A stretch of DNA of 64,000 nucleotides from Minisyncoccota bacterium (GTDB taxonomy: Bacteria; Patescibacteriota; Minisyncoccia; UBA6257; 2-01-FULL-56-20). The DNA lies in assembly GCA_036510525.1 (NCBI GenBank), contig DATCDU010000020.1:246-64245 (forward strand). The letters are read 5' to 3'. The translations under genes and the position numbers were made by a program. Positions within the stretch are counted from its first letter, which is position 1; every line of letters begins with the position of its first letter. Of this stretch, positions 60,742-60,868 are shown in pieces. The notes under the pieces were generated by a model, which searched no databases, was not told where the DNA came from, and saw only the letters and a list, made by a program, of their open reading frames with translations.

Positions 60742-60868
60742 GCGCACCATAAGAAAGTACTCCTCTTCAAAAGGTGTCTCGGAGCCGCGAAGGCGGCGAG
60801 AGCCAAGGCGGCCGGCTAGTAAGCCGGAACGCCGTCCTTTTGAAGAGGAGTACTTTCTTATGGTGCGC
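60742..60868. repeat. Family-B palindromic element copy Y (33-bp perfect arms, ~61-nt core); arms incorporate the ACCA-3' end of tRNA-Ile
   Basis: Arms gcgcaccataagaaagtactcctcttcaaaagg (60742-60774) and its reverse complement (60836-60868); core tgtc-TCGGAGCCGCGAAGGCGGCGAGA...; the right arm ends in tggtgcgc, which is the tRNA-Ile discriminator/acceptor plus CCA. Confidence 0.65.

Follow-up and report, generated by a model that had tools for sequence, protein, structure and literature searches.

Palindromic repeats with a conserved apical core and apparently target-derived arms at gene and tRNA 3' ends in Patescibacteria

The window, by which we mean the whole stretch of 64,000 nucleotides that was analysed, carries genes for tRNA-Val, tRNA-Ile and an rluA-type pseudouridine synthase in succession on its minus strand, and a long palindrome, here called Y, lies between the latter two and reaches into the tRNA-Ile gene. 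Another palindrome of the same family (family B), copy X, extends over the end of pilB. The features of the two sites are as follows.

57340..57455, plus strand: family-B copy X, with 29-nt perfect arms and a 58-nt core, its right arm over the pilB TAG stop (R1 covariance model, 81.1 bits)
57452-59167, minus strand: pilB, its stop codon under the right arm of copy X
60009..60713, minus strand: rluA-type pseudouridine synthase gene (PF00849), 28 nt downstream of the distal arm of Y
60735..60739, minus strand: GAAAG just outside the distal arm, a direct repeat of GAAAG at 60853-60857
60742..60868, plus strand: family-B copy Y, whole palindrome (R1 covariance model, 84.1 bits, E = 2e-25)
60742..60757, no strand: outer part of the distal arm, an inverted duplicate of 60853-60868 that is missing from the empty site
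60758..60774, no strand: inner stem, distal side, TACTCCTCTTCAAAAGG, the last ~9 nt of which match the semi-conserved inner stem of the family
60775..60835, plus strand: conserved three-way-junction core of Y (fold, alignment, covariance model)
60778..60802, plus strand: helix P2 of Y, CUC / GGA internal loop / GCCGC-GAAG-GCGGC / GA / GAG
60807..60833, plus strand: helix P3 of Y, with outer GGCG/CGCC, a bulged A, variable inner CCGGCU/AGCCGG and loop AGUA
60836..60852, no strand: inner stem, tRNA-proximal side
60853..60868, minus strand: outer part of the tRNA-proximal arm, ancestral GCGCACCATAAGAAAG, made up of 8 nt of the tRNA-Ile end and 8 nt of trailer; the duplication template
60861..60935 (Rfam/ARAGORN 60861/60864-60935), minus strand: tRNA-Ile(GAU) with encoded CCA (ARAGORN; Rfam tRNA, 76 bits)
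60951..61023, minus strand: tRNA-Val(GAC), CCA not encoded, the first gene after the promoter-like site (ARAGORN, Rfam)
61050..61078, minus strand: promoter-like TTGAAA-17-TATGAT upstream of tRNA-Val, kept in relatives

Y is the longest inverted repeat of the whole window. Its arms (60742-60774 and 60836-60868) measure 33 nt each, are 100% complementary and enclose a spacer of 61 nt, for a total of 127 bases; inverted-repeat measurement thus agrees with the description in an earlier note on this DNA, from which the present analysis set out. The conserved motif lies on the plus strand, antisense to tRNA-Ile and rluA. As RNA, Y is predicted to fold at -92.4 kcal/mol, against -40.8 +/- 3.8 for shuffled sequences (z = -13.6), and z is about -13.5 for either strand. 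So perfect a palindrome raises the question of an assembly artefact, or of a pseudogene tRNA within a known insertion sequence, and the short-k unitigs L003 and L004 do break within a Y arm. The data refute both readings, to which we attach virtually no probability. An identical palindrome with unique syntenic flanks on both sides is present in L001 (ERZ27294337) and L002 (ERZ27294387), so that three assemblies agree, and a diverged orthologue exists in L068. The tRNA-Ile scores 76 bits and is identical in relatives. No transposase, integrase, reverse transcriptase or RAYT (Y1 HUH transposase) gene lies within 5 kb of Y, and phage, plasmid and viral collections gave no match, either to Y (blastn against phage and plasmid records) or to the A and B cores (scanned against viral contigs).

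The overlap of Y with the tRNA is plain from the sequence itself. The tRNA-Ile gene ends ...TACGCGC-A-CCA, with the discriminator A at 60864 and CCA at 60863-60861, and the right arm of Y spans G69-C72, A73 and CCA, the last 8 nt of the gene (GCGCACCA), while the left arm opens with the inverted copy GCGCACCA. Both statements had been made in the earlier note, as had the placement of Y in the rluA upstream region; rluA indeed begins 28 nt beyond the distal arm. We found no promoter-like site between tRNA-Ile and rluA, and no T-run after the arms of Y or copy X on either strand, by sequence reading and by terminator scan. Because the sole promoter-like site precedes tRNA-Val and no T-run follows, Y probably lies within a tRNA-Val-tRNA-Ile-rluA transcript. 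Read-through RNA would, as modelled, contain a 33-bp perfect duplex starting within the acceptor stem, and the predicted fold of the unprocessed precursor contains the 33-bp stem and lacks the acceptor stem. The proposal that the hairpin competes with the acceptor stem is therefore borne out in silico, where it out-competes that stem on the unprocessed precursor. Such a duplex would suit a processing or insulating hairpin rather than a terminator, for instance an RNase III-type substrate that parts the tRNA from the rluA mRNA. Y is dispensable, since close relatives exist that do not have it.

Family B extends well beyond this site. Y and copy X have the 23-mer TCGGAGCCGCGnAGGCGGCGAGA in common, and a scan for TCGGAGCCGCGnAGGCGGCGAGA over one genome per species returned 56 loci, all but one chance match of which are Patescibacteria metagenome-assembled genomes (MAGs) of Paceibacterota, Parcubacteria, Minisyncoccia and a few Saccharibacteria. 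In total 59 copies were found in Patescibacteria MAGs, with up to about 11 per MAG. Every copy has a core of ~56-61 nt inside a long stem, which has a median of about 26 bp and reaches 40; the stem sequence is specific to its locus, and there are 55 mismatches in 1412 stem pairs. Folding an alignment of 56 copies with RNAalifold yields a three-way junction as the core consensus, with 17 core pairs, 9 of which show double compensatory changes (pair 48/59, for example, is GC in 30 copies, UA in 11, AU in 9 and CG in 6). The P2 consensus is N-U-C / GGA / 5 bp / GNAG / 5 bp / GA / G-A-N', where the closing pair covaries (C-G, U-A, G-C, A-U) and the remainder, including the GGA/GA internal loop, is invariant. 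P3 consists of an outer helix of 3-4 bp, a conserved bulged A, an inner helix of 6 bp and free sequence, and a CAGCAG-type (AGCA-type) loop, and every one of its pairs covaries between copies. G-U pairs are almost absent from the core helices. A covariance model, R1, built from the 56-copy alignment finds only Y and copy X in the window; it also recovered a B copy at L068:4853-4932, in which P2 has changed compensatorily from GCCGC/GCGGC to GGCAC/GUGCC (GGCAC-GAGG-GUGCC). Since this variant departs from the invariant helix, exact-pattern scans undercount family B. The conserved core described in the earlier note accordingly holds as a widely repeated module, but Y and copy X are near-identical only in its first 28 nt, up to and including the 23-mer, the second half being conserved as structure, with a covarying stem, and not as sequence.

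A search of Rfam 15 on both strands of 56800-61100, at gathering score and at E <= 5, gave no family match to the element, and Rfam over the window and 13 related loci returned only tRNAs, rRNA and one SAM riboswitch. On comparison by eye with their consensus sequences, hammerhead, twister, K-turn, group II domain V, SRP domain IV, tmRNA and 5S were all rejected as identities of the core, as their junction lengths or conserved nucleotides do not fit. No prior description of such elements in Patescibacteria or Parcubacteria was found in the literature, and family B is a previously undescribed set of small, ORF-less palindromic repeats of Paceibacteria-type Patescibacteria. The SAM-I riboswitch (58 bits, window 14936-15036, minus strand) looks unusual for a reduced Patescibacteria genome. 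A further RNA feature of the window, at 57052-57124 on the minus strand, is called tRNA-Ser(UGA) by ARAGORN; it is 73 nt long, has no long variable arm, scores only 38.6 bits and is conserved in relatives, and its anticodon assignment is doubtful. Upstream of it are a promoter-like site (57270-57297) and a leader of ~150 nt (leader region 57125-57300) with a terminator-like hairpin at about 57186-57214, and a leader segment is complementary to the D/anticodon region of the tRNA and covaries in L062 (7299-7318 versus 7466-7485).

The origin of the arms became apparent from syntenic loci, which were reached through RluA homologues. In L064/L065, whose RluA is 77% identical to that of the window, the tRNA-Ile/rluA site is empty and has no hairpin: it reads tRNA-Ile...GCGCACCA TAAGAAAGGATAAGATG...ATG(rluA), that is, GCGCACCA TAAGAAAGGATAAGATGGAAATATAAAAAT ATG, and holds GCGCACCATAAGAAAG just once, with a diverged version in L066 and L068. 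The window site reads ...GCGCACCATAAGAAAG, then 17-nt inner stem, core and 17-nt inner stem, then CTTTCTTATGGTGCGC TC GAAAGGTAAGATG.... From this empty site it follows that the outer 16 nt on the tRNA side of Y are ancestral and the 16 nt on the rluA side a new copy, the outer 16 nt being the exact reverse complement of adjacent sequence and lacking in the empty state. The earlier note had proposed an inverted duplication of flanking target DNA and had pointed to empty sites in relatives as the way to check it; the single GCGCACCATAAGAAAG of L064/L065, and the absence there of the inverted copy, sustain that proposal. It could be argued that sites of the L064/L065 type are precise deletions rather than ancestral states, and B may be old at the tRNA-Ile site, because L068, with an RluA 72% identical, has a B element there.

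Other copies tell a similar story. The position of copy X is empty in L062 and L065, with the same junction, and family B is thus polymorphic for presence and absence at both sites of the window. L021, orthologous to copy X, has the same core and inner stem with a different outer arm that is still perfect. In the element after pilB in L066 the arms measure 35 nt, 16 nt of which belong to the coding end of pilB, and the distal copy retains the ancestral GGGAATAG where pilB itself now reads GGGAGTAG; in L035 an arm spans the last four codons of a gene and its stop codon. Moreover, sibling copies within one MAG (L025/L027; L035/L047/L058) have in common the core and only ~7-10 bp of stem. The outer arms are therefore not inherited from a donor, and one arm is consequently local sequence and the other its copy. 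We propose that the transmissible unit is the ~60-nt three-way-junction core with about 7-10 bp of inner stem. No source was identified for the inner 8 nt of the Y arm (TACTCCTC) or for 16 nt of the copy X arm. Short direct repeats flank Y (GAAAG) and its L068 orthologue (AAAGG), and copy X has no clean duplication; judging from the sequence, the GAAAG repeat at Y could be either a 5-nt target duplication or microhomology used in a switch-back.

The placement of family B relative to genes is strongly biased. Across the 59 copies, with genes called by a simple ORF/tRNA caller, the right arm (3' of the motif) lies a median of 16 nt from the next gene and the left arm 140 nt. In 25/59 copies the 3' end of an opposite-strand gene falls within 35 nt of the right arm, while the mirror arrangement occurs in 5 (p = 3e-4), and overlaps between arm and gene number 14 for the right arm and 0 for the left. 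Apparent overlaps of the right arm with gene starts were rejected, the start codons having been miscalled. Protein-coding genes account for 18 of the 25 adjacent 3' ends, several with the stop and last codons covered. The remaining seven belong to tRNAs (Ile, Leu, Met, Glu, Arg twice and Tyr; 7 anticodons) and lie at -8 to +2 nt, an excess of about five-fold over an assumed gene share of ~5% (binomial p about 2e-4). Family B hence prefers gene 3' ends generally, with an excess at tRNAs. Of the earlier note's idea of a possible tRNA-3'-end-targeting element, the over-representation of tRNAs stands; the specificity does not, because most of the gene ends touched are protein-coding. The stronger form of that idea is a mobile element whose core recognises tRNA 3' termini and duplicates the terminus on insertion. 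The seven tRNA ends with as many anticodons, so tightly placed under the right arm, are what such an element would leave, but the 18 copies beside protein-coding genes, and copy X of the window on the pilB stop codon, are not.

The tRNA-Ile site in relatives bears on the same question, as it is a hot spot for differing palindromes.

Window: B core 3' of tRNA-Ile
L068: B variant, with arms of 28 perfect nt and 8 more with one mismatch, reaching CGCACCA
L062/L063: family-A core, arms from CGCAC
L070: a fourth core ("D"), arms orthologous to the L062 arms
L066/L067 (L066:1295-1385): 38-nt perfect arms around a 10-nt loop, GGAAGATTAA, from GCGCAC of tRNA-Ile
L064/L065 and L071: hairpin absent after tRNA-Ile
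L061: decayed A element after tRNA-Val, arms from GCAC of tRNA-Val
L069: toxin-antitoxin pair inserted between tRNA-Ile and rluA; site not comparable

Since its inner arm resembles the B inner stem, the L066/L067 palindrome may be a B element that has lost its core. The insert of L069 (4467-5001) is a nucleotidyltransferase/HepT-like toxin-antitoxin pair, and in L061 an insertion of ~830 nt with a short ORF (3090-3915) separates tRNA-Val from tRNA-Ile, which is divergent there and 12 nt away from the start codon of rluA. In 5 of 9 lineages a palindrome starts from G69 or C70 of tRNA-Ile, as targeting of tRNA ends would have it; yet these palindromes have four different cores, or none, and the copied sequence runs into the genomic trailer, hence it is not that of a mature CCA end. 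The encoded CCA, whose regular presence here the earlier note had suggested checking, occurs in the window, L064 and L068 but in none of the others, the orthologous tRNA-Ile genes of L062, L066, L070 and L071 among them, and it is therefore incidental. What recurs at the site is a hairpin that extends into the end of the tRNA, not the B core specifically. The arms always stop at G69 or C70, which suggests selection against deeper competition with the folding of the tRNA.

Other structured elements accompany family B in these genomes. One, the X element (distinct from copy X), is a conserved three-way junction of ~120 nt that is convergent to a tRNA of any isotype and co-oriented with B. It occurs at L009:7436-7556, L013:7314-7432, L034:3086-3206 and L057:122-242, and at these four loci the B element occupies a small hairpin between the tRNA and the X element. 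A metagenome scan returned at least 120 loci (L072-L191), about 73 of them real X elements, and about 47 of the 73 have a convergent tRNA 31-134 nt away. The tRNA-proximal boundary is an inverted copy of the local T-loop/T-stem; at the far boundary the tRNA is repeated directly, beginning at T-loop position ~56 and continuing through the 3' end, often on into the trailer. This repeat has a median of 19 nt, reaches more than 50 and sometimes includes the trailer terminator. The X element has no match in Rfam. Its identity as a tRNA, tmRNA or other housekeeping RNA was rejected, as its ends differ according to the tRNA beside it and it is called neither by ARAGORN nor by Rfam. The X element is genuinely tRNA-linked, and its frequent place beside a convergent tRNA, together with the four loci where B is followed by an X element that is itself bounded by copies of the local tRNA 3' end, adds to what can be said for a mobile element that targets tRNA 3' ends. 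Taking the protein-coding neighbours and the diversity of cores into account, we nonetheless consider that explanation of family B distinctly unlikely.

Two further families place a constant apex within hairpins of locus-specific sequence. The hairpins of family A resemble terminators: their arms (A-tract, GC stem, T-tract) are specific to the locus, and their constant apex is TCGCC-TCCAGGCAGATGACCGTTC-GGCGA. The family occurs in the window (6972-7036 and 56941-57027), at L062:3904-3976 and L061:3085-3160, and in L022 and L049, in either orientation relative to genes. A copy after the doubtful tRNA-Ser(UGA) is present in the window and L062 and missing in L065 and L066. The family-A loop AGGCAGAUGAC has a 12-nt identity with E. 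coli 4.5S RNA, which we judge to be chance. Family D has the apex TCGCTCCRRCGTARGRACGTCCACTCGC within locus-specific hairpins (L070:4915-4942 and 8271-8298; L012:3781-3808); one copy lies 3' of tRNA-Ile, with arms orthologous to the L062 arms that hold a family-A apex, and the reverse complement of the family-D apex has ACGCCGGAGCGA in common with the X element. Such families invite the explanation that cores are small modules spreading into the loops of pre-existing hairpins such as terminators, by ectopic gene conversion or template switching between hairpins, and that the arms are simply the hairpins of the host. The family-A copies do look like A-tract/GC-stem/T-tract terminators with a constant 19-nt loop, and the orthologous arms CGCACAAAACAAAA... 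of L062 and L070 hold different cores, A and D. For family B we regard this explanation as very unlikely, for the empty sites of Y and copy X are without any hairpin, no T-run follows either stem, and arms that include 16-18 nt of coding or 8 nt of tRNA sequence are improbable as pre-existing hairpins.

On balance we favour, with slightly better than even confidence, an account in which a core with a short stem is inserted, the stem is extended by hairpin-primed template switching, and the resulting hairpin has a role in RNA processing or insulation. The core with its short stem would first be inserted directly behind the 3' end of a gene, perhaps duplicating 5 nt as it does so. After or during insertion the hairpin would serve as a primer-template: the DNA strand would fold back and copy the upstream flank, adding an inverted duplicate of it on the far side by intra-strand template switching, and the same switching would later re-perfect a diverging stem. 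At Y the copied flank would be the last 8 nt of tRNA-Ile with the encoded CCA and 8 nt of trailer. Hairpin-primed intra-strand template switching is the simplest route to an exact reverse-complement copy of a flank, and it would yield perfect arms despite rapid divergence as well as Watson-Crick "covariation" with hardly any G-U. Template-switch mutations are known to create and maintain perfect hairpins, and the proposal has been made that RNA hairpins arise and persist through them (PMC8794818), and quasipalindrome template switching is documented in E. coli (PMC7202029). Several observations do not sit easily with this account. The fixed orientation of the core relative to the copied flank does not follow from a purely replication-driven fold-back; the shared arms of L062 and L070 fit core insertion into existing loops better than creation of arms, and hint that one core can also replace another inside a hairpin already in place; and template switching does not account for the 8-16 nt of the arms that lie between the stretch taken from the flank and the stretch common to the family.

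A different reading attributes the stems to selection rather than copying, such that family B would be a functional structured RNA favoured at gene 3' ends, either in cis, stabilising the gene-sense transcript or directing its processing, or as a convergent small RNA that is read off the motif strand and has a 3' arm antisense to the end of its neighbour. The core has been kept across MAGs with RluA just 60-70% identical, with invariant unpaired nucleotides and covarying stems, and elements are retained at the orthologous loci window/L068, L017/L053 and L022/L042; class-wide conservation of unpaired core nucleotides and orthologous retention argue that the core interacts with something conserved. 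The strong orientation bias and a median stem of ~26 bp, which suits double-strand-specific RNases, also agree with this reading. The arm mismatches show a weak preference for G-U on the motif strand (28 versus 14, p = 0.04), and since this skew favours the strand opposite the neighbouring gene, a convergent small RNA may be involved. Mutational strand bias was rejected as the cause of the 28:14 ratio of G-T to A-C mismatches, because deamination of cytosines on the gene-sense strand, the exposed one, should skew the ratio the other way. Against selected structure stand the close relatives without the element at the same sites, otherwise unchanged, which marks it as dispensable, and the perfect Watson-Crick arms with almost no G-U despite fast turnover, which are unlike the outcome of selection on RNA pairing alone; nor would selection explain why one arm copies coding or tRNA sequence. 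The near-absence of G-U from the core would likewise fit a DNA-level constraint better than an RNA-level one. We therefore view the stems as unlikely to be products of RNA selection, and an insertion followed by template switching as the better account of them.

A broader possibility, which is speculative and in our view unlikely, is that B, A, D and the X element form a Paceibacteria guild of ORF-less apical-module elements that spread by copy-choice, or else that B and the X element are convergent small RNAs with a built-in antisense to the 3' ends of neighbouring tRNAs or mRNAs. The small structured core alone may be passed on, perhaps with an RNA or a single strand as its template, and its fixed orientation would then be accounted for. 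Each element may construct its own arms or repeats out of target sequence, which in B would give inverted copies of gene 3' ends and in the X element a tRNA duplication anchored in the universal T-loop. If true, this would amount to transposase-free homing to gene and tRNA ends.

Whichever route produced them, the elements differ from the known systems that they most resemble. Like REP, BIME and REPIN sequences they are short, ORF-less, multi-copy extragenic palindromes just 3' of genes that form transcript hairpins. REPs, however, measure 20-40 nt, and it is the palindrome itself that is conserved, with a GTAG or CGTC tag (PMC3733652). Family B conserves the 60-nt three-way junction at the apex and varies the stem from locus to locus, to the extent that arms are wholly different between copies even within one MAG; there is no GTAG or CGTC tag; the core is conserved class-wide where a REP is conserved within one species; and no RAYT accompanies Y within 5 kb. 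The MITE-like elements (Correia/CREE, ERIC, Rickettsia palindromic elements, BOX) offer another likeness, being non-autonomous, about 100-150 bp in length, folded into long hairpins and polymorphic for presence and absence, with a short target duplication possible at Y (GAAAG). Correia hairpins are, in addition, RNase III substrates. Copies of a MITE nevertheless share their terminal inverted repeats and most of their length, whereas the termini of family B change with every locus and are in part a copy of the gene alongside; what its copies have in common is confined to the middle ~60 nt plus ~7-10 bp of inner stem. Quasipalindromes made by template switching share with family B the one-event reverse-complement copy, stems that are extended and kept perfect, and compensatory changes without G-U intermediates (PMC8794818, PMC7202029); template switching is a mutational process and not a family, and in B it would be tied to a conserved core, a fixed polarity and gene 3' ends.

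Intrinsic terminators and tRNA trailer hairpins likewise stand directly 3' of a tRNA or gene, and family A has the A- and T-tracts of such hairpins. Y differs from them in its 33-bp stem, its 61-nt structured apex, the lack of a T-run, which also holds for copy X, and its position between co-oriented genes without an intervening promoter-like site. Integrative elements that target tRNAs also leave the 3' end of a tRNA gene duplicated beside the inserted DNA, but in att duplications the repeats are direct and arise from the action of an integrase on a fixed att core, and the Y copy is inverted, is part of only 127 nt and has no integrase in its locus. The X element does have direct repeats, but these vary with each local tRNA, unlike a fixed att core. 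Y and copy X both have the three-way junction, the P2 with GGA/GA and GNAG, the P3 with a bulged A and the long stem that define family B, and the family is best filed among small palindromic repeat elements, as one with a conserved apex and target-derived arms.

The tiny genomes of bacteria of the candidate phyla radiation are considered to contain little mobile DNA or regulatory RNA. That structured, repeated non-coding elements occur there across a whole class, and with precise placement at the ends of genes and tRNAs, is of significance. The elements also constitute a natural repeated experiment on the birth and upkeep of perfect hairpins, in which the ancestral state, the template and the copy are visible in several cases, and they call for caution, as the "covariation" of a helix may stem from mutational copying and not from RNA selection. 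If they are processed or transcribed, they would add a new level to the maturation of tRNAs and operons in organisms that are not culturable alone, and if they move without a transposase, they would widen the range of ways in which DNA elements target safe sites.
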